DNA of 64,000 nt from Isurus oxyrinchus. Lineage: Eukaryota. The notes below the pieces were generated by a model. It had not been told where the DNA came from. It was given only the letters and a program-made list of their open reading frames with translations, and ran no database searches. The DNA is taken from assembly GCA_026770705.1 (NCBI GenBank), contig JANJGN010000047.1:3534001-3598000 (forward strand), in the 5' to 3' direction. Positions 3,796 through 50,463 of the stretch are shown piece by piece. The position numbers and the translations under genes are program-made. Positions within the stretch are counted from its first letter, which is position 1; each line of letters starts with the position of its first letter.

Positions 3796-4575
3796 TAGAG
3801 TCATAGAGGTCCACAGTACAGGAAAAGGCACTTTGACCCATCGAGCCTGCTCCGGTCAAATAAGTTCCTAACTATTCTAATCTGATTTTCCGCAACTTGG
3901 CCCATAGCCTTGTATGCCATGGCATCACAAGTGCACATCCAAATACTCCTTAAATGATAGGAGGGTTGCTGCCTCTATCACCCTTTCAGGCAGTGAGTTC
4001 CAGATTCACACCACCCTCTGGGTGAACAAATCATTTCTCACATGCCCCTCACCTTAAATTTATGCCCGCTGGTTATTGATCCCTCCAGCAAGGAGATACT
4101 CTTCTTCCTGCCTACACTATCTATCCCCTCATAATTTTTGAACCTAAAAAATGTACCACTTCTATCTCCTCTATTCCAGGGATAATAACCCCAGTCTTAG
4201 CAATCTCTCCTCATTACTAAAACTCTCCAGCATAGGAAAAATCTTGTTCAATCTCCCTGCACTCTGTCTAGTGAAATAACTTCCTTCCAATAATGTGGAT
4301 TCCAGAACTGCACGCAGCGCTGTAGCCATGGCTTAGCCAGCATTTCATACAGAGAAGGAGAAATCCATCTGGTCCATTGAGGCTGCTTCACCATGCAGTA
4401 TGACCATGGTTGATCTAATTATGGCTTTAACTCTGCTTTCCTCATTGACCCTCATAATACATGACCCCTTTTACAAGCGATAATGTGTGTAACCCAGCCT
4501 TGAATATATTCAATGACCGAGCATCCACTGCTGTCCAGGGAAAGATATTTCCAAGGACTAGCGACCCCCTGGCGG
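3796..4575 (-). mobile_element. Two CR1-type LINE 3' fragments in the copy A intron
   Basis: Microsatellite-like tail (atagagtcatagag) followed by CR1 3'UTR/ORF2 C-terminal sequence (taatgtggattccagaactgcac reads VQFWNPHY in reverse). Confidence 0.75.
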
Positions 4576-8348: not shown

Positions 8349-8418
8349 CAGTAACGCCCATAGCTGTAAGAACAGGGTAGAATATGCTTTCTATTTGCAA
8401 GATTAATGGATATCCCAT
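8349..8418 (-). pseudogene. GPCR copy A, exon 1 (N-terminus and first half of TM1)
   Basis: ATG...MGYPLILQIESIFYPVLTAMGVT + G|GTAAG donor; 70 nt; phase-1 intron matches the exon 2 acceptor. Confidence 0.88.
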
Positions 8419-8485
8419 TATCTAAGACGTAAGTATACGTGTGAAGCCAACTACTTAAATATCATTGCGCCTTCGAAGAATTCGC

Positions 8486-8572
8486 TATTTATATTAGAGA
8501 GAATTCTCTGGGGAGACTATTGGGCTGGTTACATCATAAACAATATTAGTTACAGTTATTTAACAAACAATA
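8486..8572 (-). promoter_or_regulatory. Proximal promoter of GPCR copy A: forkhead-like, TAACTAA, C/EBP-like, O/E(EBF)-like site, TATA
   Basis: Minus strand: TTGTTTGTT 8570-8562, TAACTAA 8552-8546, TGATGTAA 8536-8529, TCCCCAGAGA 8514-8505, TATAAATA 8493-8486; first three motifs have the same spacing as upstream of copy B. Confidence 0.6.
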
Positions 8573-9849
8573 AGGTAAAAACGTAGACCAAAGATAATGA
8601 TGATACTAATGTTTTGAAATTTCCTCAGAAAAAAAAACACAACTGCTAGTGGCAATATAGCTATTCTTATCCACGTATTATTAGAGGTGTATACACACCT
8701 CAGCTACTGCTCCGATACAAGTTCTCTGCAAGCAGATGTAGGAACAGTTAATCGAGGGGGTCTTGGCTTTGCAAATTAATTTGAACATTTCGCTTCAAGC
8801 CACGAACCATCCAGACATTGGCATATATGTTTTTTTCCCTCATCATTTCCATCCAGATTCCTTGGAAATAATTTCCAAAACGACTAACTACAACTTTAAC
8901 GTCTGCAAAAGCTCAAGAAGAAACAAGTGTTGGTCGGCAACGAGTGATGTTTAAGAAAAGTGGCCTGGCCAATATCACCCACACTCTAAACACAAGGTTA
9001 AAGCAAAAACCTTGGCATGAGGAAAGCCGATATGATTCCTTAATTTTTCCTTAATCCCTTAATTTTAATTGATAATTTTAATTGATAATAGTTAATTAAA
9101 CTTGATGATAGATTTTAAAAGTCTAGCCTGAGGAAGACAGCAGTAAATCTTTAACACAACAATTTTGGCCAGAGTCTGCCCTGAAAACAGGTTTAACAGA
9201 ATGCATATATTGCAATTGCGAACGAAATATCAAAGTGGGTTCAGGCATGAGAAGATCATCTATCAAAATTGAAGATCCATAGAATCGCCTCCAGCCTGCC
9301 ATGCCACCTCACCACAATAACCCATTCCCTTCAGCACATGTAACTAAAAGATAAAGTCCAGTCAGCCAGATATTCCTTTCAACCGTTCCATCCCATTAAT
9401 TCATAGTGTTTCCTTCAGCTCATACAGCACATCTGCGTACAGTATTCCATTTAATCCATCTAAATTTCTCACTCGACATGATTCCTTCAGCAATCATTTC
9501 CTGGAATAAGGCCTCTGTGTTTCCTGTGTTGTTAATGGTTATGGGGTTAATACTGACTCTAATGGCATTAACTGGCTCAAGATATGCAGCCCCAGACCCT
9601 GATCCCCTCAATCCGCCCCATTTCCCCTCCACTCCCACGCAATCAGTTGGTCATTGTGTCGCTAGCTGGTTATAGCCGATACAGATATCGTCTTACACCT
9701 CGAGGCCAAATCAGGTTGACATTTCGCGATGAGTTCTTCATACTGCACTCATGGAAATCACATCGAGTTTACAGCACAGAAATGGACAATTGTGCCTGCG
9801 CCGGCCAACGGACACGCTACCTTGTTTAATCCGACGGTATACCAATGTG

Positions 9850-10550
9850 CTGCCACGCCTGGTGGGTCTGGCTTGACTTAAATTTGGTCGTTAATTCGGG
9901 GGAGTTGCAAGTGCAGAGAACTGAAACATGCCTTCCGCCTAGTTCGCAATCAACGACTTTAGGCGTTTTGAGCAAGTTAGGACATCAGTAAATAACAGAA
10001 CAAATATCAGGCCAACTGCCGTTGTGATTTATGTAATTATCTCAGTAACAAACATACAGCAAAGCTGCTTCTGAGTGGGAAAAAGCTCATTGTTAGTTTC
10101 CCTCTATCTTCGTAACAAGATTGTTTGAGAGAATTTGGAACGACAGCAAGATGCATGAGGAAGCATTGGCTACTCAGCGACCTAGTTTATGTTTGAACTG
10201 CACGGGCAATGAGGAAGACTTTGCCAAGCTGGATATTTTGCTTCGTTCCTGGCGGGCTTCAAAGTATTTAACAGCACATTGGGAGTTCGTTGTGCAGCTT
10301 AAAAAAAACATCACGAAGCAGCAAATGTATTTTGGCCTAGCCGGCAGCTGACTGTTAAGAAATACGCTTATGGATAGACTTTGATGAAAGAGGTATCGGA
10401 AATAAAATGACTTCTGGCAGCTGCAGTCATAAACAGGGCCACAACAAAATTCAAGCAAAAACAACTCAGATTTAAACATTACAACATTGGCAAAATTTCG
10501 GTAATGGGAAATGTGCGCAGTAAAAATGTTCGCCCTCAATTATGGTAACT
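9850..10550 (-). repeat. Inverted copy of the tRNA-array spacer
   Basis: Reverse complement matches 51050-51570 (e.g. catacagcaaagct, tttggcctagccggcagctgactgttaagaaata). Confidence 0.7.
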
Positions 10551-11169
10551 CATTGTTGGAAGTCCGTTTTTTATTCCTTCAACATTTCACCCCATAACGC
10601 AGTTCAAAGTAAACTCATAGTTTAATGCACAGTTAACGTACACACCAATTATCTCAAAAGCAGGCGAAACTGGTGGTTGAGTATAATTCCGCAGATGAAA
10701 GGATGCATCAGGAGGTGGATAAACGTAGCAGGTTGTGAGTTATCCATTAATTCATTCAACACAGATAGAGGTAATTGGACTAATCATACATTTGACCATT
10801 TTTAAAATAACCATTCCAATTGGTAGGAATGAAACTGCCTTGCACCGTTAGCTCTGTTTGTTTTCCCATAATTCATGTCGGCATTCGGACGCTCTGATAA
10901 GTAAATGTTTTCAATTGGCCTTGTAGCTCCTTCAACAGGAAGAATCCTCAGTGATGTTTGCAGCACTACCGTGATGCATAAAACAAATCTTTGCATTAAC
11001 CCTCCGGGGTTCAGAATTCTAAGGAATAGCTTCCAGTCCAGTGAAGGAATTTCTCTTCACCTCAGTCACAATGTTCGGTCTCTTATCCAGACATTGTGGC
11101 CACAACCAACCCCCAATCCGGACCCCCGCCCGCAGTCCCCAAACCCAACCCCGATCCCCATCCCCATAT

Positions 11170-11700
11170 TTTGGATTCCCCTGTTAGCAGAAAACACCTC
11201 TCAGCCTCTGTCCTGTCAAGCCACTTCAGAATTGTGCATGTTTCACTCAAACCACCTCTCATTCTTCTAAACTCCAGAAAATATAGGCCCAAATAAATCC
11301 GTCTCACATAATAGGCCAAGCCTTCCTGCCCAGGCACCAATTTAGTGACCATTCCTTGTGGCGTCTGCAATGCAAACATATCCTTCCTGAAGCGGGGGCT
11401 CGAAAACTGCACATTTTATTCCAGATGTGGTCTCACCCAAACTCTGTGCAATTATAGCAAGAGTTCTTTATTGTTGTGCACCCCTGGCAATGATGGTCCA
11501 CATGACTCTTGCCTTCTTAATTGCTTCCTATTCCTGCCTGCTAACTTAGTGTGTTCATTCAACAAGTACACCCAAATCTCCCTGAACATCAACATTTATT
11601 AGTTCAACACTTTAAGAAAATGGATTTTCTACACTTATAACCAAAGTGAATAAACCTCTCCACATAACATCATCTTGTTGCTGATTCACTTAACCTGCCT
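11170..11700 (-). mobile_element. CR1 LINE 3' fragment
   Basis: aaaactgcacattttattccagatgtggtctcacc and neighbouring CR1 ORF2 C-terminal motifs in reverse. Confidence 0.7.
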
Positions 11701-12404
11701 TTTTATCTGAAGATTATTTCTGTCTTAAATAACTCAATGGCATTGTATCCTTCACCCTCATCTCTCTGTCACAAACTTTATGCTGCTGCAATTTCTGTGC
11801 ATATTTTTTCTAACCATCTGAAACTTATATTTTCACAAGCATCTCCTCATCAACATCCTACCTGACTCACTGTCTTTCACAGAAACATACACAAAAACAC
11901 AACCTAAATTAAAATAATACCTCATAAACGCACTTTCTTTCGATAACATTCACAACACCCCGTCTCCCACACACAGCCCACACAGCATGTATCGGCCAAT
12001 CTCTCTTCTCTCTTTTTTCTCTCTCACACACATACAAACACACACATAGAAACACAAACACACACACTAACATACATGTTCTCTCCATTTAGATTTTCAA
12101 AGCACATTCTAAATATAAATCTGGCTAAAGTCAGAAAAAGCACTTTCAGGGCACAGTTCAGTAAGTTGGCTCCAAAAGCAAAAAAGAGTGTCTTCAGTGA
12201 CTGGCAGAAGGTAGCATTTCGCACAAACCGATGCTTGGGCCACTGCCGTTCACTTTATAGATATGGAAACGCAGTAGGGAGTCAGAAGTTTAATTTCAAA
12301 CTTCGTGAATGGCACGATTTAAGGGGGAGGAGAACTGTGATGAAATATAGGGCGGCATTCCTAACTGTGAGAATGTGAATGTAATTACCAAATGTACTTC
12401 AATG

Positions 12405-13050
12405 CGAGAACATAAGGACATGTGGAATAGGAGCAGGAGAAAACCAAACAGCCCATCGAGACTGCTCCGAAAGCCAACAGGTGAATGGCTGATCTTCGGC
12501 TGCAACTCCACTTTCCCACACACTCCCCATTTCCCTAGATTTCATGACAGACCAAATTCGGTCTCTCTCAGCCTTCAACGTTTTCAGTGCTGGATCATCT
12601 ATAGGCTTCTGGAAGAAAAACATTTCAAAATTCATAGATTTTGAGTGAAGAGGTTTTATCTCATTTTTTCAAATAATTGGCCATTTATCCTGAGATTGTG
12701 ACCACTTACAGATTGCAAGATAGGAGAAACTACCTGTTTGCACCAATTATGTGAAACCCCCTCTTAGGTATTTCAGTAAGATCGCCTCTCATCCTTCCAG
12801 AACCCACAGAATATTAGAGATTATCACTCAGCCTCGCATAATATGAGCGATCTAGCTCATTTTCGCTATTCTGTTTCCATTGTCCTTCCAGAATATGATG
12901 ACCAAAACTCTACACGATAACCCAGGTGCGGTCTCACAAAAACCCCGTGCAGCTGGAAAAGTGTGGATGTTTCTTTTTAATGCGCTTACAATATCCACTA
13001 GCAATAAAGGCCAACGTGTCATTTCCTTTCCGAATTGCTTTCTGTGCTTT
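12405..13050 (-). mobile_element. CR1 LINE 3' fragment
   Basis: gaacataaggacatgtggaataggagcagg tail plus reversed ORF2 end. Confidence 0.7.
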
Positions 13051-13069
13051 TTTCTGAAGGAGGTTTGAT

Positions 13070-16000
13070 ACCTAGAATGTTAGTGGAATTTATATTTTAA
13101 AATAGAGCTCTAGTGGGGACTTATTTAATAGAAGTAAATGTGTAGAAATACATATGTAGATTTACAATCGTTCTTGCATTAATAAAGGTTTAACTTAGTT
13201 TTAAAAATCCTCTAGAAACTCAGTGGCCTTATTACTAATGAATTCAAATCCTGCATCTCAAAACATACAAATTGCAAAAATGGGTTATGACAGTTGTTTC
13301 AATTTCCCTCAGTCACTTGAATAACTCAGCCTTTACCATCGGCAGTGTCATAATAATTGGGAGCTCTTTGTGGGATACATCTGTTATCCTTGCTGTTTTG
13401 GAATTGGTGAATCTAACGTCAACGAACAGAAGAAGCGTTTTGAATTCAGGAGAGTGTGTAAAGTATTTTCGAATTGGTGAGACTGCAAAAATGGCTGTAT
13501 CCGTGGCTAAATCTTTTTTGGAAGTAGAGGATATAAGTGTGGTTGGGTTACAGACAGTATCCAAGAATAGTTTAAGAGAGTTGGCTGTTATATTCCAATT
13601 TGAGTTACCTGTAGCAGCACGGAAAGTAGCTGAAATTGAAATAATAACATGGGATTTAAAATTGGAAGGAATGCCTGAGGCACAGAGTTCTCCAAGGGGT
13701 GGGTAATTGGGATGGGCTCAAATTCAGGTGCAAATGAAACGTTTGAAATGGAAGGAAAGGAAGGAGAAAGATAATTGCCACGGAAGAACCATAAAGGCAT
13801 GGGAGAGAATGAAAGCAGAGAGTTAGAAATTGTGAACATAAAGAAGTAGGAAAGAGAGAGAGAGAGGAGCAAGCGCGCGAGAGAGAAAGAGAGATAAAAT
13901 AACAACTGACAAAGTTAGGAGATAAAACAAAAGGGACGCCGGGAGGTGAAGAAGAACTCATCTACCGAGTAGAAACCAGTGGGAGAGATGTTTAACTTTG
14001 TACAAGCTCTTCCAAAGTTTGAGGAAAAAGATCTTGAAACATTCTTTATTTCTTTTGAACAGTTAGCAAAACAGATGAAATGGCCACAGGAAACTCTTCT
14101 TGCAATCCAGGGTATGCTTAGCATACATGAGCTATAATCTTCGCTATCAGAAGAAGATACGGTGAATTATGTGTGGAAAATAAAGGCTATTTTGAGCGCA
14201 TATGAGTTGGTTCCTGAAGCATTCAGGCAGAACATTAGGACTATGAGAAAGCAGTCTGGGCAAATTTCATTGAGCTTGAGAGAGTAAAACAAAGTAACTT
14301 TGGCTGGTGGATACAGGCATTAAAAATAGAAACAACTTTTGCAGCTCTTAGAGAAGAAATTCCTTCGGAAGAATTTACAGATTCAATTTTGTACGCAGTG
14401 CGAACTCAAGTGGAGGAACAGCGGGTTGTTTTTGTACGACAAGCAGCAGATGATTATGTGTCTGTGCTTAGAGCTAAAAAATTTTCTTGTCAACTTTTTA
14501 ATCTCCGAAAGGGAGAGAAACTGGGAGGGTGAAAGGAATGTGGGCACATGGGGAAGAGAAGGTTTAGGTGTAACTTCCCAGGAAGTTTATTTCTACAAAT
14601 AAAAACGGAAGTATTGTAGGTAGAAGTGACTTTCGAAAGTTGAGGTGTTTTCACTATAATTAAGTGGAGCACACGAAGTCGGCGTGTTGGCAATTGTAGA
14701 GCAAATCATTTGGAATTATTGGGGGGCAGAAATGTTCTGGAAGTAAAAGTACTGTGGGTTATGAGGTTCAGACACAGGAAAAAGCAGTTGTTTGTGCACA
14801 AATGAATCAAGAAGAATCAGTGACACGTAAAGGACTGGGAATGTGTTCACAATTTACCCAAGCTAATTCTGATGAGCAGGTTGTAGTAATGTTTAAAGAC
14901 ACTGTGTGTGAAAGGAAAGATTTTCCATGTGTAACTGGTGGAGTAGGTAAAGATGTTAAAGTTTTAAGAGACATAGGGGCAAGTTAATCATCAATGCTGT
15001 AGGGTAGTGATACTTGCTTTTTGGAAGGGAATTACAGGAATAGGTGATATGAGTTGGGTTTATGGAAGTGCTAAGCTTATCATATAGTGGAAGGCAAATA
15101 AAAAAAATAATAAGTGGAAAGCTGGGGGAGTGACCGTTGAGATGCTGGAAAAAATGCTCATTGCAGGGATACAATTTATTCTGTGTAATGACGCAGTTGG
15201 ATCGCTAAGTGGATATTGCCTATGGCAGTTGAGCCATCTGTAAAATTATTTAAACAGAGGTGATACAAGATGAGCATTCTTGATTGTTTCCAGATTGTCT
15301 AAAAAGGAAATGACAGGCACAAAAGTTGAACAAAGGAAACAAGTTGGACAGACAGTTTAAAGGCAGGAAGAAGGTAATGAAATTCAATCAGCAGGTACTG
15401 TGTTTGATAACATTGTTCAGAAAGACACAACAGATGAAAATTCGAATGAGATGCTTAACTGAAGGCAGTTAATTGAGTTGCAGCAAAAGGATTTGCTATT
15501 AAAATAGTTATATCGGACAGATGACACGGAAATAGAAGCAACATGTATTTCACAGTGTTATTATCTTAATGGTGATATTTTAAATGAAAAAAAATGGAGA
15601 CTGAATCATGTCTCATCAAATGAGAGCTGGAAGGTGGTAAATCACATTGACATCCCATTAGGGTATATGAATGAGTTTCTGAGGATTGCTCAGGAAATGC
15701 CAATGGGGCGACATTTTGGATTAGAAAGACGCTGGCAAAAAATGTGGAGAAATATTTTTATTGTCCTGGTTAGCACTGGGATGTAGTAAAATTCTGTAGA
15801 ACATGTCACAATGTCAGGTGATAGCGAAACTACAGGCTGTGATTAAGTCGAAACCTTGAATCCCAATACCAGGATTTGAGGGACCTTTTATGAAGGTCAT
15901 GGTTAATTCTGTAGGGCCCTTATGTAAGAGTACAAGTGGGAATCAGAACTTACTGAGAGTAATGGGTGTGTCCACCAGATTTTCTGAAGCGATGTATTTA

Positions 16001-17120
16001 AAAATATTACAACAAAGTAGATTGTGGAAGGCTTAACTTTTTTTTAATGAGATATGGTTTTCCTAAGAAAATACAATCAGATCAGTGCTCAAGTGTAATG
16101 TCACTGCTGTTTATGGAAATAATTAGCATTTGTGGATAAAGCAGTTTAGGTCAACAGCTGATCGATTGGTGTCACAATGAGCTTTGGAAGGATGGCATCG
16201 AACATTAATAGCTACGATGAGAGGGTACTTTCAGAATTATCCAAGGATTAGGGTAGGGGAATTTTGTTCTTGTTTTTTTTGCTATTAGGGATGCTCCTAA
16301 TACATCGACTCGTTTTCGTCCTTTGGAACTACTTAATGGTCATGAAGTAAGGGGACCACTGAGACTTTTTTCTGAGAAATTGGTGTGCTAAAGTCCAGAA
16401 ACTACTCCCCTGAATTACCATTATCAAGTAAATGTATCGGAGAGAGCAATGGACACCAAATGGATAATATCAGTTTAGAGTTATTGCATTTGCATGAAAA
16501 ATGCACCTGTGACACTTCAAAGGCTGAAAAACAAAGGGATTGCAGGTCTAAGCAACTGTGCTGTTTAGATTGCTGACTTAATCATTTTCAGTGAGATTTG
16601 GGAGGAGCATTTGCAGCATCTGGAACAATTATTACTCGATTACGAGAAGCACATTTAGTGAGGAGGTTGCCTAAAAGTGAATGTGCAGAAGTGCAAGTTA
16701 CATACCTTGGCCGTACCATTGGACAAGAGCTTTGAGAGTGAAAGCTAACGTGGATTTCGCAGTGCCTACAACAAAAGGGGAAGTTGTAAGATTTCAGGGC
16801 ATGAGTGGGTTTTGCTGGAATTTTGCACCAAATTTTAACAGTGTGCTTGCTTCACAGTCCGAACTGTTAAAAATGAATAAAGAGTCTCAATGCACACTGG
16901 AGTGTCAGAAGATATTTGATAGTATGAAAAGTTTATTAACTACGAAAACAGTTTTTGCAGCACCCCATTACACCAAGAAATTAAAGTTGGCCGTTGACGA
17001 GAGTGATATAGGCACTGGGGCTTGACCGTTTCAGAAAGATGACACTGAAATTGAGAAATCGTGAGAGTCTTTTTTTCACTGAAGTTGAATGTGCAAAAGA
17101 GAAAATATTCAAAGTGCTTA
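13070..17120 (+). mobile_element. Degenerate Gmr1-type Ty3/gypsy LTR retrotransposon (partial 5' LTR, PBS, gag, PR, IN, RT, RNase H)
   Basis: LTR end ~13355; tRNA-Pro-like PBS tgggagctctttgtgggat 13358-13376; gag FEEKDLETFFISFEQLAKQMKWP; knuckle CFHYN*VEHTKSACW 14646-14690; protease RDIGA 14967-14981; integrase H..GxHFG..CRTCH and core 15680-16380; RT MKNAP 16494 and V*IAD 16563; RNase H KLAVDESDIGTGA ~16984. Confidence 0.9.
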
Positions 17121-18329
17121 TTTTTTGTGAGTTCACTGACAAATTATTAGGTGGTTCTGCCCGGTCTGACTGAAGTTCTTCATCAGGTTTTCTGAGGGAT
17201 TGAAGTGGCACCTCTATATATTTGGCAGTGGGTTGCTTCCTCTATTAGGAGGGAAATGTAGAACGTGAAGACATGGAACGAAAACCAGGTGCCAGAAAAC
17301 GTCTCCAAGCAAGAAGCAAATAAGAAGCATCATATGAATGTTCTATTGATTCCCGACATGTCGATCTGAATGTTGGTCAACCTGTCTGGATTGCATAGAG
17401 TTGAGGGAAGAGGTATTATGAACACTTCTGCCGTTTCGGTGTCTGAATTACTTTGCAGCAGTGCCGTTCAAACGATTGGTCACCGATATAAAAGGTTACA
17501 GCTCCTTCTCTCTTCGCAGATGTTGCCTGAACTTCTGAGTATTTCCAGCATTATCTTGATGTTATCTGGATTATACAATATTAAAATGAGGTAATGCAAC
17601 TTCCCCTAACTTTTGATAACATTGCAGCAACATACTGGTATACATATCATAGCATTGGATTACAATGCTTGCTTGCATGTTGTCACCGTGGAAAGCGCCA
17701 GGCTATTAAGCTGAAGACCCCAAATCTGAATCTCAGCACTGTCTCTGTCTGTTTCTGCAATGTATGGCTTTAAGTTAATGCGGCAAAGAAGTGGCAATTT
17801 TCAAGGCCGGAGGGAAATGATCACGTGTGCTTATAATGAAGCACGATTGGATAAATGTCTTCTATGAAGAAAACGTGGACCATAGTGCTAACATCTCGCG
17901 ACCTCTTCAGAATATCCCAATGGGATTTGAGACGTTCCGGGAATGAGGACAGCTTCGACATTTTTTATTTCTTATCGTTGTCACAAAGGCTTTCGAAGTC
18001 GCCAATTTTAGTTATCTCTCCAGCATAAGCTGAAACTTGTCTGACATGTTGACCTTTGCAGGAACAGTTGAGGGCTGAGTAGTTGAGAACAGTCTCTTTG
18101 CTGTGACATTCCCTGTCGCAGTTTTAATTACCAGCAAATGCACTATGAATCGGGACTGGATTCATTTCCTGTACTGAAATCGTAAAATCTGATGATCTGA
18201 GTTCCAGTGTCACGAATGGAATCAATGCCCAATATTATTTAATGATTAATACTCCACCCATTTTAAAACGACAGAATTATTCAGGCATGTGCTGGCGACG
18301 GCCTGACAAGAATGGATGCTCATTTTAGC

Positions 18330-18950
18330 AAATAACAACGTTCATTGATATCACACTGTTCACTTAATAAAACATCTCCGTGGGGATTAACAGGAACCAG
18401 GTAAGGATTCTCAGCCAGGTAATTAAAGCAGTAGGACGAGTGAACAAACATTAGTTCTAAGGACGATTGTGAAGGAGGAGAGAGATTTTGGGAGTGGACT
18501 CCAAATTGTAGATCCTAGAGATTTGAAATCACGTCCAACAGTGGTGAAGGGAAGGAATTATGGAGTGAAAAAGGCGCCAGAATATGAGGGATATAGAATT
18601 TTCAGAAGCTTGCAGAGAAGGAGATCACAGGTGTTGGCAAGGACAAGGCCATGGATGGATTTGAATACGGGAATGGGAACCATAAAATTGAAACGTTGTT
18701 AGACCGAAAGTAAGCTTTCAACGATCACTAGTGTTTTGTGAAAGTGACGCAGTGCCAGTTACATTCTGAGAATTAGGACTTTCCCTGATACAGCATTTTG
18801 GGACAATGGGTGGAGGAAGGCCGGAAGGGTAATATTTTATAAGCAAAGCCTGGAGTTGACATAAGCATGGAGGGTGAGGTTAGCAGCAGAAAGGGCCGAG
18901 CTGTGTGACATAATGTAATCTATGCGATCGAGACGATATATGGTCAGGCG
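18330..18950 (-). mobile_element. L2-type LINE 3' fragment
   Basis: Reverse strand TLHAYVNSRL-like ORF2 C-terminus; aataacaac tail at the left end. Confidence 0.65.
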
Positions 18951-19016
18951 CTGACGTTATGCTCATATCCTCCATATGACGTCTTCTGTGACTTTGACAA
19001 GCACTTATTCAGTGTT

Positions 19017-19414
19017 AAACAAAAACAGAATTACCTGGAAAAGCTCAGCAGGTCTGGCAGCATCGGCGGAGAAGAAAAGAGTTGACGTTTCGAGTCCTCA
19101 TGACCCTTCGACAGAACTTGATTTCGAGTCCAAGAAAGAGTTGAAATATAAGCTGGTTTAAGGTGTGTGTGTGGGGGGGCGGAGAGATAGAGAGAGAGAG
19201 ACAGGTGGTTGTGTAGACAAACAAGCAGTGATAGCAGTGACGGAAATCTTGTCGCAGAGAGGAACAGAACTTCTTCAAGGAGGTAGGCATTTCTGGAAGA
19301 GCAGTGGCAGTCAATTAAACACAGAGATAAAAACAAAAAAAACTGCGGATGCTGGAAATCCAAAACAAAAACAGAATTACCTGGAAAAACTCAGCAGGTC
19401 TGGCAGCATAGGCG
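19017..19414 (-). mobile_element. Internally deleted Penelope-like element with direct terminal repeats (pseudo-LTR) and 8-bp TSD
   Basis: 47-bp direct repeat at 19017-19063 and 19363-19409; TSD tcagtgtt at 19009-19016 and 19415-19422; putative ORF start MPTSLKKFCSSLRQDF; hammerhead-like motif. Confidence 0.75.
19080..19118 (-). ncRNA. Minimal type-I hammerhead-ribozyme-like motif (core variant)
   Basis: AGUU-CUGUCGA-A-GGGUC-AUGAG-GACUC-GAAAC-GUC-AACU: stem I, stem II, GAAAC/GUH core; CUGUCGA deviates from CUGANGA. Confidence 0.5.
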
Positions 19415-20999
19415 TCAGTGTTGTCGCACTGGGTTCCATTGTGAAGTTTGACTTTTGGAGATTCTCAACATGAAAGAGGGCATGGCAGAATGTTGCTTAA
19501 AGTAAGCAGCTAATGACAGGCCATTCAAAAACAGCATATGTTATATCGCTATTGAAGCGTAAATGTTTTAATCATGTACTTGAGCAATGAAATCAATGTT
19601 TCTCTTACTGAGAACCCACTCCGTGCAATTATGTTTAAAATATGTTTAATCGGTAGAAATTGCTGAGGCAGGCAATGATTTTTTATTGCGGCGGAGGCGG
19701 GATTGTGGGTGGGGGAATGGCGTGGGCGGATATAAACCTTGCATTCTCCACCATCTGAAATAATACGACCACAATTCTACACAGTGCTGTCGATCCCTCC
19801 GTGTAGTAATCCATTTAATTCTGCATTATATAATTCTGTAATGGTTACATTTCAATACCATATAATGCGAATTTAATTTGTTTTTTCCTATTCCATGTTG
19901 ATAGTTTTCCTTATTGAACCAACTGGTTTTCCCATCGGCCAAAAATATTATACCGTTAACTTTTTGTCTAATAGACTGTTTTAATATTGATCAATATAAT
20001 TGAAATTCTACCAAATCTTGAGGTATATATCTTGCTGTTCCCCTGTGTCATTGCTACTAGTAATGTTTCCTGAATTTTATGAATCAGCGTGCAATAGCAC
20101 AGCTTGAAATACATTTAATTTCACTTCATCCTGAAACTGACCCTGACTGCAAGGTCAGTATTGGCCCGTTAGCCACGTGTTGCTTCAAATTGACGTATTC
20201 TTCGCTGCTCAGCAGGTAGTGGTTAATGATACAATATTAGGAGAAAACAACACGATTCAATATGGACAAACTTCATTAATTCTAATTGAGAAGGTCTTCC
20301 AGTCTACACCATCTGTTGGAAAGCATTCCGGCAATTTCCGGTTATCTATTCCGGAGGGGTGGGCCTGCAGATCTTTAAATGGAACCTCTTCAGTACGGTT
20401 CCTGTAATTTGAGCAGCTGCGACATGTAAAATTCATTCTTCTCTGTTGCAGGTGCAAGGAGAAAAGCATCTTTTGCTGAAAGTATTAATTAGCTGGTTTA
20501 ACTGCAGTCGCTTCGCCTTCACTGGATTATCAATTTATATATGATTGATATAGTTTGCTGAGTTGGACACAGGTGATTTAACGTAAAAAGGGAGGGAAGA
20601 AGCACATTCCTTCCACGATTTGAAGAGTCAGGAACGAATGGCCACAATTGAGATGATGTAAGGAATATTAAACTAACAGAATAACCAATCCCTTTACCCA
20701 GTGAGTTCTGAGGCTGTGAAACTTAGGGAGGCGGATGTTATACCTCAGATCTTCCAGACAGCTGTAACGATGGGCAATTGCCTCTGCCTGTGACGTTTCC
20801 TGATCCCCGATAATACGACGCATTTTCTGGCATGACTTCTGATCCCAGCTGAATCTACAGTGGCCGAGTGCGAATTCTCGAGGGCAGGTCCAATGAGCAA
20901 AATAAAAGGTTTGCATAAGAGGGGACATAAACTCATTTTTACAACACAGGCTGCCATATTCAGATAAGTTTTTTTTTATATCTCAAGTATTTAAAGGAA

Positions 21000-22530
21000 T
21001 GCATGTGAGTTATTGACTGTATGCGTGAGTGCATCAATGGGTGACTGGCTGGGTGTGTGATTACATTGTGGGGTCGAACGTATAAATGGGTGGGCTGGGC
21101 AGTTGGATAGGTTGGGCAGTCGGGACAGGGGTATAGTAAGGACGGCTGGGCAATCCTGCCGTTGGTGTGGTCGGGCTCGGTAGGCAGTCAGGTCCAGAAG
21201 CCAAGTGGGAAACCCAGTAGCTTCAGCTGTAAGTGAGTCCTGATACAGAAGGTATTTCAATTGAACTCTAGCTTCAGTCTCACCATGTTGAATACATTCC
21301 ACCAGTTCTTATGAAGTCACAAAATTAAACTGTGCTTGCGCCTCTGAAGGAGGAATAAACACTTCACAGTTCACAGGCCGTTTGACCCAACCCACCGAGA
21401 AATGCAGAAAGGTAATGACAATCTTGATTCAGATTATCCCGTCCTCCGAGCTGAATTGTTAAATCAACACTTGGGGAGCAGCAACTCAGATGTCAGTTTG
21501 TCTGGGCAGTCGGGTGGGTGGTAGGTGGTCGGATCGTGGCTAACTCAGGTTTGTTGCACTGTTGGGTCTGGGGGTAATCAGGCTGGGAGTGGGTAGTCAG
21601 GCTGGGAGTGGGTAGTTGGGTGAAAGATGGGTAGTTAATTGGATAGGATAATCAGTTAGGTCTGGTGAGCAGTCAGGTCACGCAGGTGGATAATGAAGTT
21701 GGGTGGACTGTCAGGTCGTGTAGTTAGGTACTCAGTTTGGGTGAGTAGTTGGGTCATGTAATTGGTTAAAGGGGCTGGGTGGGCGTTCTGATCTGTCATT
21801 GTGTATTGAGGTTGAGTAGGCAGTTGGGGCGCGAAGTGTTTAATCAGGTTGGGTGAGCATTCGGGTGGGGTAGGCAGTCCGATCGGGAATATTCACAATG
21901 GATCACTTGGGCCGTTGAGTCATTTGGGTAGTCAGGTTAGAGGACTAGTTGAGTAGGGGAGTGTAGTCGCGTTGGCAGACAGTCAGTTGGAGAAAGGATG
22001 GTCCGGTCCTGAGGAGGGGGTGGTTGGGAGTCTAGTTCGGAGGTGGAGAGATGAGTTGGAATGGGTAGTCGGAGCGGAGAGTCATCAGTCAGGCGAGGTG
22101 GGCAATTGAATTGATGAGCCATTGCGTCCGGTGGGCAGTCGGATCGGTTAGGCTGTGAGGGTTGGGGAACTATTCAGGATTTTTGGGGGTGGGGTGTGGG
22201 CATGTTGAGCTGGAGTGTTGGATGTAGTGTTCAGTTGATTTATGCAGGTTAATCTCTGAGTTAGACCGCGTTTTAACCAGCATAACTTTTGCAGCGTAAA
22301 TATGAAACAGGTCCCGTGTATCCGACCCAAAGCTCTCACACTGAGCTCAGTGTAAGATACATTGACAGAGCGCCCAGGACATCGTAAATCAACCAGTCAG
22401 GAATTTAAACTTCCGAGGGAAGTTCAGCGCATGCGCACGTATCAGGACGTCCTCAGGGTTCCCGATTCACAACAACAGCTTATATTAACTGCTGTGGGCA
22501 TTGGAAGTTTTGGGATCTTAGCTGTTCAGT
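21000..22530. mobile_element. G-rich low-complexity interspersed repeat(s), probably non-autonomous DNA elements
   Basis: Reiterated gggcagtcgg/gggtagtcagg motifs with a more complex right end; no ORF; family not assigned. Confidence 0.4.
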
Positions 22531-22800
22531 AAACTGGCCCTTCTCATTGCAGTTGCTGCCGCTCAAGGTAGTGAAGGCCAGCACAGAGAGGTTTTACTCC
22601 ACTGCTGGAACATGTTAATGACGGTTCACTCTGTACCCTGAGTGACAAATGCACCGCTATTGGAAGAAACAATTATAACCCCCATGGAAATTCAGCAGGC
22701 ATAAAACCCATGACACAAAGTGGAGCAATGTTTTCTGATACCTTTAAAAAAAAGTGGCAGCAGAAAGACCAACATTAAAAACTGGAGCATTAGCTACAAT

Positions 22801-23738
22801 TTAAATACAGTTAGAACAGGAAGACTTGGTTTCATTTTGCATTTTGTTTATCAGTATCAGAATTTTTGTCCAAGAAGATTTCAGTATCTTCTTCAGCTCT
22901 TCCCTGAACTTACTTTGTGTAGCTGCATAAATAAACGTGTTTGTGCAGGAACTCAAATACATGAGCTTTTGTCCAGTTTGAGTGGCGATGTATGCAGGAG
23001 CTGTATAATCCGGTCGTACATGAATGAACATACCACTGACTAACGAACAAACGACTGATGTCAGCCACAACAGTATATAAGTAAACGATACAGTGAACAG
23101 TAAGATAATCGATTTCCTTCGGTCCTGTATTTCTGGATCAGTCTGATTCTCACTGCTGTGACCCCGAATCTCCTTACGGGTTCGACTGGCTACTAAAATC
23201 CGTCTGACTGTCAAACAATTACACAGTAATATCAAAGTGAAAGGAATCTCATTCAGCAAAATACTTTGCAGGCAAGTAAATGTTACACCAAAAGGAGACC
23301 TATAAAAATCCAGGCTGGGTTGGAAACCCCAATGAGCATTGTTAATTATTTGCTTAGGTTCAAATGCAAACCAAAAAGGGATGTTCACTAAATATAAGAG
23401 GACAGAAATGGCTGTTAGAACTGCAGCCGCAGTTCTCACTGTGTAATACCTTGTTCTAAACTAGTGACTACAAATAGATACATGCCGGTCAAATGTGAAG
23501 CAGACTGTATATCACACCGTTAAATACAGGTTCACATTATTTGTGTATATTATGAACTTGCAAATAGATGTATAGGACAGGATAATATTTGGAAAACGCT
23601 TACGCAGGATTTTATAGACGAGAGCATTGTTGAGCATAACTAGCAAATCGGCTGTTGCCATGGACACCAGAAAGAAAGAAATACATTTTGAAAGGCCACA
23701 ATTTCCTCTGCAGAGAATCACGATTGTGATCAGGTTCG
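22801..23738 (-). pseudogene. GPR139/GPR142-like GPCR copy B, exon 2 (two nonsense codons)
   Basis: Acceptor ttttccccacag|CG AAC; NCGLSKC, MATADLL, V*YTVCFTFDRH, CSH*FRTRY, DPEIQDRRKSIILLF, SSCTNTFIY. TGA 23512-23514 and TAG 23461-23463; no frameshift. Confidence 0.9.
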
Positions 23739-23999
23739 CTGTGGGGAAAAGAAAGAGAAAGTAGGTAACATGGACACTCAGATACGTTCCACTGATAATT
23801 ATAGGAGATGTCACTGTGCATTTTTGCCTCGCATTATATACAGGCATTCGATTTACAACATTGGACAATGTTGATGAAATTCTTAAAATAAATAAAGGAA
23901 TATGCACTGTACTGTGATTATTTTGAAGGGCAGTATTTTTGATATTACCACGAGCTGAAGCAGAGACTGGAACCAGATTTCTGGGGTGGGGTGGGGGGA

Positions 24000-24800
24000 T
24001 CTCCACATTGGTCACGAGCCTTCTGAGAAATCAACCTGTGCATGTAATTGGTAAGAGAATGGAAACGGATTGGGAGCATAAACAGGTTGGAGCTAGGATT
24101 TCAGTCTGTGATCGGAACAAGCAGGTGTCTAAAAAATTCTTTTCTTTTTTCAGCAGAAGCGTCTCAGGCCCAGGGGCTCTTGCTGAAGCTGTGTGGGGGA
24201 GGAATCTTGAAAGAGTGAAACCTGAGAAACCTGTGGTCCACCCAGGCACGCTGAAGAGCTGGGAGATGTTCGTCTGTTATTTTAACCAGACCTGATCATA
24301 CTGTGTACCAGAGCGCTATTGAATGGTGAGTGACAGTGCCTCTGGTAAAACTCCACCATCAGGAGTGTTGTGACGTGAGTGAAAGAGGCTCCACAGAAGT
24401 AGGCCTTGTTGATGATAATCATATCTGTGGACCTGGGATGGTGTCAACTGGCTGTTGGAGGCCACTTGGGAAACAGACCCTGCGTGAAGAAGAGTAGCTG
24501 AGCACTGCTGAAGCAGGATGGATCTTTGAGAGACATTGGCACTGAATACAGGGCCAAATACGTGCTGAGTGCTAGCTGAGAAATCCTTGAGACTTACCAT
24601 TGTTGTATCAACTAAATAAACTATAATCAATACTTTCTACTGAATGCAATTAGCAGTTAATTATATATTTTTGCCTTTGATTTGATTTTTAAAGGAAAAG
24701 TTTTAAATAGTGAAATCTTCTCCATTGTTTCCTTCCATCAGTATCCTTTAGGAAGTTGGGCTATTTCAGGCAATTGATCCTCAAGTGGTCAGTAATACTA
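24000..24800 (+). mobile_element. Possible solo LTR in the copy B intron
   Basis: LTR-like composition, AATAAA ~24615 and a ...tcagtaata end resembling the other gypsy LTR ends here. Confidence 0.35.
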
Positions 24801-25953
24801 TGTATAGCGAGTGAAACTCTGCCTTATTCCCGGTAAATTGCAGTCTGCTGTTTTCATGGTGCTGAGAGAAGGGTCACTCGAATTCAATCTGGAGAATGGT
24901 ACCGGAGTGTTGCCCCAGGCTGCTCCAACTGCCACCTAGTCTGATTCATTGATGCTCAACTGGGGCTAATGTAGGCTTCTGATAATAGTATATAACTGGC
25001 AAAATCAGATCAACCGTCCATCATACATATCTCCCGATTCCCTTTAAAAGTCCATCGTCCCTGGCATTGGATTGCAGCTTAATTTACATTTAAACTGGAC
25101 AGTGCAAGTTCCCCGTGAGTACCTTAGAGACGCGGTCCCGTTACAGAAACAAAGTTTTGTAAAGGGAAAATGGGATATTTCTATAACCTGTATTTAAAAG
25201 GACAAATAATAAAGATGTTTCCTGGCATACAAACTTCCTGTCATCAGGCCGTTACCGTGTGATACACCATGTGAATTTGATAACTTGCCGCTGGGGATCC
25301 ACTCCAAGTTACATTAAATATAATTTTACTGCTGGCTCCTCCTGATAATTTGGAGATGGGAATCTCGGGAATGCTTCAGATGCCGGCGGTACTCAGGAAC
25401 ATTTCCAATCCCTTACAGGAAGCAAGAAATTCAAATAAAACTTTACGTTGGAAAAATATCTATGCAATTTAATTCAAAACATTGCGCTTTGCCTATTTAT
25501 AATCGCTCTGAAGGAGCCGCTCAGGAACTAAACAGGAACCGATGGAGTCACAAAGAGGGAGGAAGGAGGAGCAGCTTCCTGATCCTCAAAATATCTTCCC
25601 GTCCCCTGCTGGACAGAGGACGCTGCAGTGCTAGGAATTATCACTGTAAAGTAGACAATGGACAACATGAAATATGAGATTGTTACCATGGACACTAAGC
25701 AACACATTATATAATTATGTATGAACTGTTAACTGGCGGGATTTCAAACTCCCTCTCCTTCAATATGAGGAAGCTCCAGGTGCCCACAAACTATTGAGCA
25801 GAACTGCCGGGCCCTGTAAACAGCTGTAATTCCCATTTATATTCAGCAATTCATCCCGCTAGAAATATGACTGGGCAATGAGACATTCGCACAATCAGCC
25901 ACATAATCGCTAGCAGTGAAATACTCAACAGCTGCCAGGCAACAATGACTTAC

Positions 25954-26023
25954 CGGGAATACCAAAGGCTGCGAGAATTGGGTAGTAAATTTCCGTTACT
26001 TGTAGAATCGTTGACCGGATCAT
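25954..26023 (-). pseudogene. GPCR copy B, exon 1
   Basis: MIRSTILQVTEIYYPILAAFGIP + G|GTAAGT; 70 nt; phase 1. Confidence 0.9.
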
Positions 26024-26092
26024 TTTTGTGGAAGAATGCGATAGATCACTTAGCTTTCTGAATTGCATTGAAGATCCCTAACTGCTTCCCCC

Positions 26093-26172
26093 TTTATAGG
26101 CCAATTCGTGTCCCGATGAGGGAATCAGCTTACACAATAATTCGTGTTAGTTATGGTCTCTTAACAAACAAG
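26093..26172 (-). promoter_or_regulatory. Proximal promoter of GPCR copy B
   Basis: TTGTTTGTT 26171-26163, TAACTAA 26153-26147, TTGTGTAA 26137-26130, TCCC-N5-GGGA 26123-26111, TATAAA 26098-26093. Confidence 0.6.
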
Positions 26173-28384
26173 TGGGTAATTTACCTCTTAGAGACCCCGG
26201 TCCGCCAATGTGGAAATTGACCAGATCAGTTCCAGAAACTTCGTCAATTAAAATTAATGAGGGGAAAGTAGTCCCAGGGTGAATCTGTGCTGCGTATGCC
26301 CCCTGGAATGTTGTAAAGACCACCCCTCCTGTACAGTGTTGAATTCCTGGGGCTTCAAGTTATTCTTTTGCAATCTTGTCTCATCCATTCCAGAATATAA
26401 ACGAGCGATAGAGTGTAATTACTCCTTTTAAATTTCCTATCTTCTGTGGTGAAACCTCCTGATGACGCTGCATTATTAATACTAGCGATGATATTGCTCT
26501 GACATTACGAATGCTGGCGATATCCATATACTAATGTTGTTGCTGTCAGTCAACATTGCCAGTCATTATCCAATCTAACATGAATAGAGGGAAACATATT
26601 GGGAAATTTTCCGTGCTGATTTTAATCTATTATTATCAATGCGAACGCCATTCATAAGGATGCACTGCTCCAACATTATTAGTTAGGAAATACAGACATA
26701 AAATACTGGGAATACTCAGCAGATCCTGTAGAATCAGTGGAGGGTGAATCAGAGTTAATGTTTCAGGTAATGTTCAGCATTAACGTTTATAATTTCAGAT
26801 TTCCAGCATCGCCGTATCTTCTTGTTGGATTATTGCTTTTGATTCTTTTCCAGAATTTTCACAGTGTCTCTATTCTAGTGCTGATGATGGTGATACTGGC
26901 ATAAAATCACATAGGTTCTGTCTCCTGCTCAAATCAATACTGGTGATCTCCTTTCAATAACATGACTGTTGGTGACGTCACTGCATCTTTACGTATGGTG
27001 ATTTTAACTTCACTGAGGAAGCACCCACACCAGCATTAATCATTGTGTCCGTGCAGAGAATCATTCTAATATTTCGAACTGTAACCCGACACTAACGTTA
27101 CTGTTGAGGCCTGAACACTAAGCTATTCGTGATGACATGACTCAAATATTGTTGGAGGTGATTCAGTGCCTCCAGGTTTCTTTTTTCATGTTTTGTTTTA
27201 GTTCCTTCCGAAGTCTGGCCACTTGATTATAAGGTCATGTTCCGCATGGCCGGAATAAATGCAGATATAATTTAATAAGCAAATTGGTTAAAATGGGAAA
27301 GCCCCTTTTGAATGAAAGTGATGCTGCTTGCAATCCTCTATTTCACATTTGCAACATTGTTGATGCTTTGGCTAAGTATCATGACACACTGATGCCCATG
27401 TCCTGGGCATAGCTAAAAGAGGAATAAGGAAAATTCTCAGATGCGTTTTGCTTGAAACTGGGCTTGCAGGCATTACATGTAGGTTTTAAGATACTCTGTT
27501 AGTTACATGGATTTGTACTCAGATTGTAGCAGAAGATTCAAGACAGTTGTCTAAACTTCGAATGTAATAAGTTGATCCTCGGATATGAAAGCCTGGCAGG
27601 CGAGACCTTAAAATGTTTTTTTTTTTGTACACTTAGAGAGGCAATTAGTGATCCCTGTACCTGGAGACATAAATCCTTTTGCTTTTTGCCGGCCCCTTTT
27701 TTTTTTATCACCGCATAAAAAATACACCCATTGCTCAAATAGTGCCTGAAATATGTTCTCATTGTGTACTCGCCATACCCGTAGTGACTGGTTCTGCATC
27801 AACTGCTCATTGTGTTCCCATTCTGCCTCCTGTGTTATGAATACACAGACCGTTCAAGAGATAGTTCCTTTCGACCCATTCTATCGAATTGTCTGGTAGT
27901 TTTACTAAAGTGAATTGCTGAATGAATACTGAAAACGATAATAGAATATAAATTTGAGTTTCTGCCATCAAAGAGTTGTTGACCTGTTGCATCTTTAAAG
28001 TAGCGATTGTGGCATCTCGTCATTGTGTTACTGCAGGTTCTGAATGCCCTTTAAAATTAACACTGTTTTGTTTGAAAATTGATTTTGTGCTCGTTCTGAA
28101 TTAATATGTATGTGTGACTGTTTTATGTCTCAAGGTATTTGTGTGTATCTGCGTTGTGTGTAAATATATTTAGGAGTGATTGCGAAAAGAAAAGAAATAG
28201 GCAGATAAAAACCTTTTCGCATCAAACCGGATTCAGACTAAATGAGGAATATGCAGATCTGTGTAACTAGCAGAATGATGAAACATTTTATATTCAGCAC
28301 AAGAATTCAAAATCACACCAGGGAAATACACTTTCTCAACGTTGTTAAGAGCGGAGATCAATGTGCTTTTCAGTGCCATGTTAA

Positions 28385-30490: not shown

Positions 30491-31042
30491 TTGTTTCTTT
30501 ACAATAATCATTACACTTCTCTTTGCTTTCCTACCAGGAAGCTGCCCGCTAAACTAAAAGGCCTTCGTTTTTGTGTTTCCCAACTGTTATGTTTATAACT
30601 TTCTTCATTATAATGAGAAATCATCGCCTCAAACATTCACTCTGTTTGGATCGAGAGAGGTTCGCTGACATTATGAGAAACTCCGCCATTTTCAGTTCAT
30701 TCCATATTTTCAGCAGCCACACTATTTGTTTTCCTAACTGACAGGATGGTGGAATCATAATCAAAATGGACTAAAAGAAAACTAATTTAGATGGTAATGG
30801 GGAGGGGGGAGTAGAATTGTGCAAAGAATCTGATAACACTTTTCAAGATCCTGCACAGACTGGAGGGGCCGACTAGCCTCCTTCTGAACGGTGGGATTCT
30901 ATGATAGCACGAGTTTCATTTCTATATAGATTGGGAGATTAGAAACATCTCAAGACGTAAAGCTGATGAATGAATGTTTCCGGATGATTGCCTGATGGTT
31001 TGCAGAAACCATATATTGCAAGAAACAAGGCTGCATTTGGCA

Positions 31043-31126
31043 GCCGTGGAGGCCAAAGGGGTAAATTGTTTATTATGAACTTTGTACATGGATTTCAGTG
31101 CGAACGTTCAAACACTGGTTGTAGCC
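31043..31126 (+). pseudogene. Very degenerate tRNA-Ser-like relic (inverted paralog of 53554-53637)
   Basis: Lies in a block homologous to the reverse complement of 53400-53780; shares gaacgttcaaacactg. Confidence 0.5.
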
Positions 31127-31854
31127 TCCAGATTTGGAATGATTATCATCTTCCATCAGCTTCTTGAGTTGAAAATGGATTAAATTTAATAATTTGACAC
31201 AACATTTAGAAACACAAATAATATATCAGAGAGCAACTGTTTAAAGTTGAATTGTTAGAAAGTGAACAAAATGTAAAAATGAGAGAGCAGCAAACACCGA
31301 AAACTGCTTGAAATGCATTTTTCCAAATAACCTGGAAACATTTTGGAGGAAAATCAGGATCTTTCGCTAATGAACGTTAATCTGGTTTGGTTTCATTCAG
31401 TTGGGCTAGTTTTATCTGCAGTATAAACGAGAGGCCTCGAACCAGCAATTATCAGACACTATCACCATTTACACCAATGGCTAACGCGTGATCCAACCGG
31501 CATGGAACAACCACAGCTTGGTTTAGGCAGAAGTTAATAACGAGAAGTAAACAACATGTTTGTGTTTATATTCTATTTTCTGGGCACTGCACTAATTAGC
31601 AGATGCTTGGCAGTAAGGGACATGAACTCCAGTCCCTCAATGTTTCTCCTCACAAATATTTCAGCTTTTTCCCCTTTGCATCTCTTTTTGTCCCTTGAAC
31701 TCCTTCCAAGGTCCCCTCAATTGTGCACATTAAACGAAAGCCTGGTCCTCACAATTAATACAACGACTGCCCATTTAACCACGCCCTCGCTTATGATTGA
31801 AATAGCAATTTGAACCAAGTTTGAATAGTTAAGGGGAACATATAGACAAACAAA

Positions 31855-34599: not shown

Positions 34600-35365
34600 G
34601 TGAAAGAATCATTTTGATTCTGTAAATATCAGACACTGGTAATATTTGTGAGCCTGGGATTCATTCTGTAACTGTCACTCTCTGGTACTGTTGTGAGAGT
34701 GGAATTGATTTGATTCAGTCACTACTACATCTTGTGAGTTTCGGATTTATTCTGTAAATATAAGCCTGTGGCACTATCCCTGGGTGTTGGATTGAGTCTG
34801 TAAATGTTACTATCTGCTGCTCCCTATGAGTGTGGAATTGATTCTACACATATCAGTCGCTGGTACTATTTTTCATGTAGGATTGAATCGTTGAATCTGT
34901 AAATATCAGTCTCTTGCACTCTCTGTGAGTGTGGGATTGATTTGGTAAACATCGGCCTCTGGTAGTATCTGTGAATGTGAGATTGACAATGTAAATATCA
35001 GTCTCTGGTACTGTCTGTGAGTGTATGATTGATTCTTTAAATATCAGTCTCTGGTATTGCCTGTGAATGTAGAATTAATTTTCTAAATATCAGTCACTTG
35101 TCCAGTTTGTGAGTGTCGTGTTTACTCTGTAAATATAAGTCTCTGGTATGAACTGTTTGTGTGGCACTGATTCTACAAATATCAGCCTCTTATACGACCT
35201 GTGAATGTGGGTTTGATTATGTAACTATCAGTCCCTGGAACTATCTGTGAGTGTGGGATTGATTCTGTAAATAAAATTCTCTGGTACTAGCTGTGAAGGT
35301 GCAATTGATTCTGTTTATGACAGTCTTTGGTATTATCTGAGAGTGTGGGACTTATTATGTTAATA
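34600..35365 (+). repeat. Degenerate 46-bp minisatellite (~16 copies)
   Basis: Consensus ctgtgagtgtgggattgattctgtaaatatcagtctctggtactat; ctgtga recurs at 34923, 34969, 35015, 35061. Confidence 0.9.
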
Positions 35366-35757: not shown

Positions 35758-35845
35758 CTATTTGTTCAAAATTTGAGAGAAAAAAAAAACGTTGAACAAT
35801 TTTGCAAACTGAATCCAAACGTGGAGATCCTGGAGGATATAAATT
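35758..35845 (+). promoter_or_regulatory. Proximal promoter of GPCR copy C (partial match to the copy A/B footprint)
   Basis: TATTTGTT 35759, TTTTGCAA 35800, palindromic TCCTGGAGGA 35828-35837, TATAAA 35838-35843. Confidence 0.4.
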
Positions 35846-35930
35846 TAATGCACTGGGGATGTATTACCTGAGGTTTTAACTCAGAGGCATTGCATGCTGC
35901 GCCAAGGAACAGAATCACTTCACACAGAAA

Positions 35931-35997
35931 ATGCATCAACCTATTCAATGGGCCTAGAACACATTCTATATGATCCTTGCCATAGTTGGTGTTTCTG
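35931..35997 (+). pseudogene. GPCR copy C, exon 1 with in-frame stop
   Basis: MHQPIQWA*NTFYMILAIVGVS + G|GTAAGT; TAG at 35955-35957; second in-frame ATG at 35970. Confidence 0.85.
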
Positions 35998-50462: not shown

Positions 50463-50463
50463 C

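Follow-up and report, generated by a model that had tools for sequence, protein, structure and literature searches.

A spaced block conserved upstream of two divergent, disrupted GPR139-like receptor genes of Isurus oxyrinchus

Four copies of a two-exon class A G protein-coupled receptor (GPCR) gene lie within 64 kb of Isurus oxyrinchus DNA (contig JANJGN010000047.1, positions 3,534,001 to 3,598,000, 64,000 nucleotides (nt); 'the window' below, with positions counted from its first letter). Copies A and B are on the minus strand, and copies C and D on the plus strand. Upstream of A and B, directly in front of the exon that encodes the N-terminus of the family, lies a block that matches between the two copies at 37 of 54 positions without a gap, including an exact run of 11 nt. 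We put the probability at about 70% that this block is a proximal promoter module, inherited from the common ancestor of A and B and kept by selection, that recruited a fixed trio of factors for TATA-dependent transcription.

The block and its spacing

The two blocks and the TATA-like boxes that follow them, 32–85 nt downstream in the sense of the genes, are these:

8525–8578, minus strand: conserved block of A; in the gene's sense TTACC, TTGTTTGTTAA (8560–8570), TAACTAA (8546–8552) and TGATGTAA (8529–8536)
26126–26179, minus strand: conserved block of B; TTGTTTGTTAA (26161–26171), TAACTAA (26147–26153) and TTGTGTAA (26130–26137)
8486–8493, minus strand: TATAAATA, the TATA-like box of A (putative function); the ATG is 75 nt away
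26093–26098, minus strand: TATAAA, the TATA-like box of B (putative function); the ATG is 75 nt away

Read on the plus strand, both blocks contain TTACA (8529 in A, 26130 in B), TTAGTTA 17 nt further on (8546 and 26147) and AACAAACAA at an offset of 33 nt (8562 and 26163), and with both strands searched the window has two occurrences of this compound pattern and no more. The initial annotation had reported these motifs and offsets correctly. It had also called the spacing exact, and this holds inside the block and fails between block and TATA box: relative to TATAAA, the sites start on the gene strand at –77, –59 and –43 in A, and the corresponding starts in B are –73, –55 and –39, the 11-mer coming first in each. 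The sites are rigid among themselves, that is, and the distance to the TATA box is 4 nt longer in A than in B. From TATA box to ATG the distance is 75 nt in both genes, despite identity there at 16 of 69 positions, and 93 nt in C. A matrix built from the two blocks scores 51.6 and 53.2 on them and 10.3 on the next best place, and there is no third copy in the window.

In gene order, the first site is one that we take to be forkhead-like, and it fits a Sox-type pattern too; the third is presumably C/EBP-like; and the middle site, TAACTAA, lies one base away from what we assume to be a homeodomain-type site. Patterns for an HNF1 half-site, octamer, GATA, ETS, E-box and CCAAT do not recur at corresponding positions in the copies. 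A coding explanation for the block was set aside, the mismatches being spread 5/6/6 over the codon phases, as was an RNA explanation (folding z-scores –0.6 to +1.4; no match in the window from Rfam or ARAGORN). Downstream of the TATA-like boxes, at 8460–8470 in A and 26064–26072 in B, CAATG appears some 27–33 nt past the TATA start, at the expected position of an initiator; it is not found in C.

Chance, age and selection

Motifs picked by eye are picked after the fact, and this was handled by comparing the two upstream regions and scoring their best ungapped segment. For regions of 300 nt that score is 20, and none of 12,000 dinucleotide shuffles reaches it (maximum 18); nor do any of 1,500 shuffles of 1-kb regions, 400 shuffles of 2-kb regions, or 408 tiles of the window (best 16 and 15). 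A and B, which belong to divergent subfamilies, share the block beyond chance.

The rest of the two genes has drifted much further apart. Copies A and B are 41% identical in protein and 54% in coding DNA, and they agree at 19 of 50 four-fold degenerate sites (0.38); the identity of the block (0.69) exceeds both this last figure and that of the TATA–ATG interval. The DNA far upstream, both ends of the intron and the 3' flank were compared as well, and none of these four comparisons gave a significant alignment. With neutral identity set at 0.38 and no indels, a window like the block arose in 6 of 20,000 simulated 300-nt regions.

The duplication itself is old. In an unrooted FastTree run of 353 rows—six unnamed proteins were excluded, and 39 selected rows examined—A, B and C fall in three separate starred clades, each with ray or skate proteins (8 rows, support 100/96; 13 rows, 100/100; 11 rows, 100/100). 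The A/B split must therefore predate the split between sharks and rays, wherever the root is placed, and sharks and rays parted roughly 250–300 million years ago. The sole chimaera protein joins the A side with moderate support (88/88, on the unrooted tree). If that placement holds, the A/B split would be older than the chimaera divergence too, which is put at about 420 million years (PMC6238376). Because the clades each hold ray or skate genes, and because introns and flanks no longer align, selection on the proximal promoter is the best reading of the block; two sequences favour selection, and do not prove it. To this extent, for A and B, the conserved cis-regulatory block of the initial annotation has the support of the ungapped test, the unaligned flanks and the separate clades together. 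Its family-wide reach does not follow: two of the three promoters carry the block, C has weak traces of it, and the family numbers hundreds of known proteins.

Several results weigh against selection, or against a module of any generality. The 95% interval of the neutral identity runs from 0.25 to 0.53, and at 0.53 a window like the block appears in 5,720 of 20,000 indel-free simulations. Gapped scoring is less striking than ungapped: 3 of 2,000 shuffles score as high as the A/B match, and A+T-rich tiles of the window outscore it, four of the top five lying in the terminal satellite. Clear instances of the block number two. The region upstream of C has no significant similarity either to that of A (equalled or exceeded by 1766 of 2000 shuffles) or to that of B (by 206 of 2000), and yet the protein of C is closer to A than B is (47% against 41%). 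What resembles the module in C lacks the middle motif and has its outer sites 41 rather than 33 nt apart. And as all copies are broken, a present-day function for the block is doubtful.

The genes behind the block

Pfam matches a single family, 7tm_1, and no olfactory-receptor family, in three segments of the window and in three intact relatives, and GPR139 is the best solved-structure match of the window receptors (E 1.4e-08). At E <= 1e-10, segments of C, B and A matched 1,910, 310 and 1,030 proteins. The best 120 of each, listed, comprise 356 distinct proteins, of which 350 are named, all from sharks, rays, skates or a chimaera, and 6 are without a name. Among these matches the named relatives are mostly annotated 'probable GPR139'. 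The cartilaginous-fish relatives reach E 1e-147, with many per species, and by comparison the structure match to GPR139 is weak; Heterodontus francisci supplies 70 of the 120 best matches in one segment search, in distinct 90%-identity clusters, and copy A shares 89% identity with a protein of the white shark. The window copies combine the 7tm_1 domain with a place among the GPR139-like class A GPCRs of cartilaginous fishes. The initial annotation had recognized divergent GPCR paralogs, and rightly so; it overlooked that they belong to this large family, and that every one of them is damaged.

The family looks unstudied. We found no earlier description of it, and no papers on a cartilaginous-fish GPR139-like family or its promoters, in a search that left most subscription journals outside its scope, so that absence from print is not established. 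The supplements of PMC11372145, PMC10529500 and PMC7677710 held no match to the family, nor did 12 of the 20 files in that of PMC5568229; in the available part of the PMC8455134 supplement, GPR142 is represented by an orthogroup only, of 70 proteins in 35 taxa.

A profile made from 198 N-termini of the family recovers the first exon in A, B and C, and so fixes the positions at which promoters are to be expected. Copy D has no exon 1 by this profile, and no conserved block by the block matrix.

8349–8418, minus strand: coding exon 1 of A, 70 nt, with GTAAG donor; 87% match to residues 1–23 of predicted protein P0241
2268–3200, minus strand: exon 2 of A, 89% identical to P0241; lesions near 3027 and at 2946–2948
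25954–26023, minus strand: coding exon 1 of B, 70 nt, with GTAAG donor; exon-1 profile E 9e-09; aligns with the N-terminus of P0121
22801–23738, minus strand: exon 2 of B, 72% identical to P0121; stops at 23512–23514 and 23461–23463
35931–35997, plus strand: coding exon 1 of C, in-frame TAG at 35955–35957
37561–38456, plus strand: exon 2 of C, open frame, Pfam 7tm_1 E 2.4e-16; TG at 37559–37560 where the acceptor is expected
52323–53250, plus strand: copy D, a decayed exon-2 remnant, nearest to proteins of the B clade

None of the four copies keeps an intact reading frame. In A, a single-nucleotide frameshift near 3027 is joined by an in-frame TGA at 2946–2948 that replaces an Arg kept in 350 of 350 named relatives among the matches listed; the frameshift, an insertion, could be an assembly error. 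B has two in-frame stops, and among the same matches one (23512–23514) stands for a Trp present in 348 of 350 relatives and the other (23461–23463) for a residue that is mostly Lys (288 of 350). C combines the in-frame TAG of exon 1 with the altered acceptor. Upstream of this lost acceptor, at 37518–37560, the frame of exon 2 stays open and includes an ATG and an in-frame AG, and it is conceivable, from the sequence, that C might yield a shortened product from the later ATG and this AG.

The end branches of the tree are not lengthened: 0.056 for A against 0.069 for P0241, and 0.17 for B against 0.22 for P0121. Because they are no longer than those of the nearest intact relatives, the losses are probably recent relative to the age of the duplication, and recent loss makes a conserved promoter compatible with dead genes. 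In this genome, then, the block is probably a recent relic, the genes behind it having since been disabled.

Traces at copy C

35759–35807, plus strand: possible degenerate module of C; forkhead-like TATTTGT (35759–35765), a run of ten A (35780–35789) and C/EBP-like TTTTGCAA (35800–35807)

Counted from TATAAA, the forkhead-class match of C falls at –79 and its C/EBP-class match at –38, and the A10 run replaces the middle site. By matrices trained on A and B, C ranks 5th of the 65 TATAAA sites, and 170 of 18,192 random anchors (0.9%) do as well. Forkhead- and C/EBP-class matches occur together in the expected windows at A, B and C alone among those 65, with the classes chosen post hoc. These figures give a weak hint that C may carry a decayed copy of the module. 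A gapped match between the upstream regions of B and C (102 of 2,000 shuffles) falls outside the block and was discounted.

When translated, the 5' untranslated region (UTR) of C can be aligned with the extended N-terminus of a catshark protein, P0012. Such extensions occur in 10 of 207 proteins with an exon-1 peptide and inform on the 5' UTR only. Seven of the ten (P0012, P0031, P0058, P0164, P0190, P0228 and P0299), from all three clades, end in Gln-Lys before the start Met, and copy C does likewise (35922–35933). The pattern suggests either a start context CAxAAA-ATG throughout the family or an acceptor-like AG immediately ahead of the ATG. At 34614–35365 lies a minisatellite with a 46-nt unit that begins about 390 nt upstream of the putative module of C and runs away from it.

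The O/E-like sites, and other readings

The initial annotation included an Olf/EBF (O/E)-like site next to the TATA box. The binding site of EBF1 is the palindrome TCCCNNGGGA, two half-sites with a 2-nt spacer between them, and the protein clamps both as a dimer (PMC4312928). The strings in question are all present where they had been described:

8505–8514, minus strand: TCCCCAGAGA, the O/E-like site of A, which departs from the palindrome at one base and lies outside the conserved block
26111–26123, minus strand: TCCC-N5-GGGA of B, which with 5 nt between its half-sites is no canonical O/E site
35828–35843, plus strand: TCCTGGAGGA (35828–35837) and TATAAA of C, two mismatches to the palindrome; TATA 93 nt before the ATG

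They stand 11 nt (A), 12 nt (B) and 0 nt (C) from TATAAA. On their strength these could be promoters of the olfactory-receptor kind, in which O/E next to TATA, with homeodomain sites, would direct expression of the whole family to olfactory neurons or B cells; we consider this quite unlikely. The site of A is certainly uncommon: it has the TCCC-NN-GGGA form with its 2-nt spacer and one mismatch, the window has no other strict match to TCCCNNG(G/A)GA, and the 64 kb contain 11 sites with one mismatch or none (0.004 per 30 nt); the TCCC-N5-GGGA class of B is equally rare. TAATGA is found upstream of A (–107) and B (–162), and TAACTAA, as noted, presumably comes within a base of a homeodomain-type site. 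In mouse, 246 of 314 odorant-receptor (OR) promoters have a conserved O/E site, and a subset a TATA box (PMC3247239). As a shared element, however, the site does not hold up, and this part of the initial annotation finds no support. The three strings all lie outside the aligned block and cannot be aligned between copies; B, with its spacer of 5 rather than 2, has no O/E site with at most one mismatch in the 250 nt upstream; the string of C, with two mismatches, is one of 174 such sites in the window (chance about 0.06 per 30 nt). One promoter of the three, that of A, fits the pattern, and the site is not kept between copies, as a conserved O/E site within 200 bp of the start would be in promoters of the odorant-receptor type. 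Of homeodomain sites, TAATTA is found in none of the three promoters and TAATGA in A and B, at positions unrelated to each other and against a background of 0.30 per 250 nt; C has none. The receptors match 7tm_1 and no olfactory-receptor family, which argues against odorant-receptor genes. Among the top 50 genes of catshark olfactory libraries there is no GPCR in the available part of PMC11979771, a weak test.

The block might instead be a neutral leftover, that part of an old duplication which a slowly changing genome has worn down least, singled out post hoc and under no selection at all. The four-fold sites are not fully saturated (0.38 against 0.25, with the interval already given reaching down to 0.25), the alignment of the C 5' UTR with P0012 implies that non-coding DNA decays slowly between orthologs, and C has no block. 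Even so, the rest of the non-coding DNA compared between A and B does not align, identity is clustered in three motif-sized runs with no indel over 54 nt, and the simulations at the point estimate gave such a window 6 times in 20,000; we regard this explanation as very unlikely.

Could the block serve splicing, as branch point and acceptor for a 5' UTR intron, with the real promoter further upstream? The middle motif does continue into CTAAT in A and CTAAC in B, which resemble a branch-point consensus, with an AG about 20 nt downstream, and in A and C an AG stands 3 nt before the ATG. But the 13 positions upstream of these AGs hold 7–9 pyrimidines, against 10–13 at true acceptors; the position of the AG differs between A and B; and the invariant 11-mer and the TATAAA at –75 in both genes go unexplained. 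We judge it highly improbable. To a short gene-conversion tract, or a fragment of a repeat family, upstream of both genes we give almost no credence: A and B lie side by side and point the same way, and the inverted C lacks the block, but identity is only 69% with mismatches between the motifs, the window has no third copy, and the block is not among its dispersed repeats.

How the module might work

The promoter module that we prefer would be bound at its three sites, at fixed mutual spacing, by forkhead-type, middle-site and C/EBP-type factors, and would activate RNA polymerase II at the TATA box. Transcription would start about 30 nt downstream of that box and leave a 5' UTR of about 45 nt. 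The geometry among the three sites would be rigid, and the distance to the TATA box would tolerate a change of 4 nt.

Beyond this outline our confidence falls off. That forkhead and C/EBP should both prove to be the right names is rather doubtful, the consensus motifs being short. Which cells used the module is more doubtful again: GPR142 is expressed in gut and islet, and by analogy with this, and with the pairing of forkhead and C/EBP factors, one might tentatively guess at a non-olfactory epithelial or mucosal cell type. A grander picture would be a hidden chemosensory repertoire of tens to hundreds of GPR139-like receptors in each cartilaginous-fish genome, confined to one sensory cell type by a rigid forkhead/TAACTAA/C/EBP code older than the shark–ray split; this, on present showing, is an unlikely one.

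The value of the block lies in the handle that it offers on a receptor family that looks both large and unstudied. Should it prove to be family-wide, it would predict where the family is expressed, and supply a short element that can be tested with reporters; should it be limited to A, B and their orthologs, it would be an ordinary conserved promoter on dead genes.

Other features of the window

Much of the remaining window is repetitive. The A+T-rich satellite at 62236–63993 has a 61-nt unit in 29.5 copies (85% matches) and reaches the window end. Copies of an unclassified dispersed repeat, 68–78% identical, lie at 48761–52088, 9878–10391 and 472–898, and three are found just upstream of copy D, where exon 1 is missing. 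An inverted pair of 588 nt (30840–31420 and 53263–53831; 68% identity) has one arm that begins directly after the coding remnant of D. The segments at 3877–4313 and 45200–48157 match each other at 64% and, by eye, are likely retrotransposon remnants; an open reading frame there has no Pfam match. Degenerate tandem arrays with periods of 33 and 37 nt occupy 57157–57872 and 39752–40143. None of the three other open reading frames of at least 150 amino acids in the window matches Pfam.

Comparison with known systems

Shared promoter motifs are already known from large receptor families, and a feature of this kind is not new. The closest likeness is to the mouse V1R promoters, where again a large receptor family has short motifs, near the start, that are common to subfamilies otherwise unalignable (PMC1955453). 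The differences are that about 165 genes with mapped starts were available there (PMC1955453), against two promoters known from sequence alone here, and that the present receptors are unrelated and their block directly alignable, with fixed spacing. Judged as a feature of the V1R kind, the block passes on the pairwise comparison only, with two promoters of three and a faint trace in the third.

Mammalian odorant-receptor promoters resemble those of the window in their A+T-rich proximal region, in the TATA box of a subset, and in the one O/E-like site of copy A (PMC3247239). In mouse, O/E, homeodomain and TATA are the common motifs, O/E and homeodomain being the only ones besides TATA, and the word 'forkhead' has 0 occurrences in the available text (PMC3247239), whereas the block here is forkhead-like and C/EBP-like. 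Of the 8 bases that the EBF1/Olf1 (COE) site specifies (PMC4312928), A has 7, at the 2-nt spacing, and C has 6; in B the half-sites are 5 nt apart. Catshark is reported to have only 5–8 receptors in each of the OR, ORA and TAAR families (PMC6368271); a single GPR139-like clade has at least 70 distinct 90%-identity clusters in one shark species.

Among receptors with a known biology, GPR139 has been reported to be a Gq/11-coupled dynorphin receptor (PMC12287315), and GPR210A/B subtypes appear in PMC6504862. The receptors of the window find their best structure match, a weak one, in GPR139, which with GPR142 makes the nearest vertebrate comparison.

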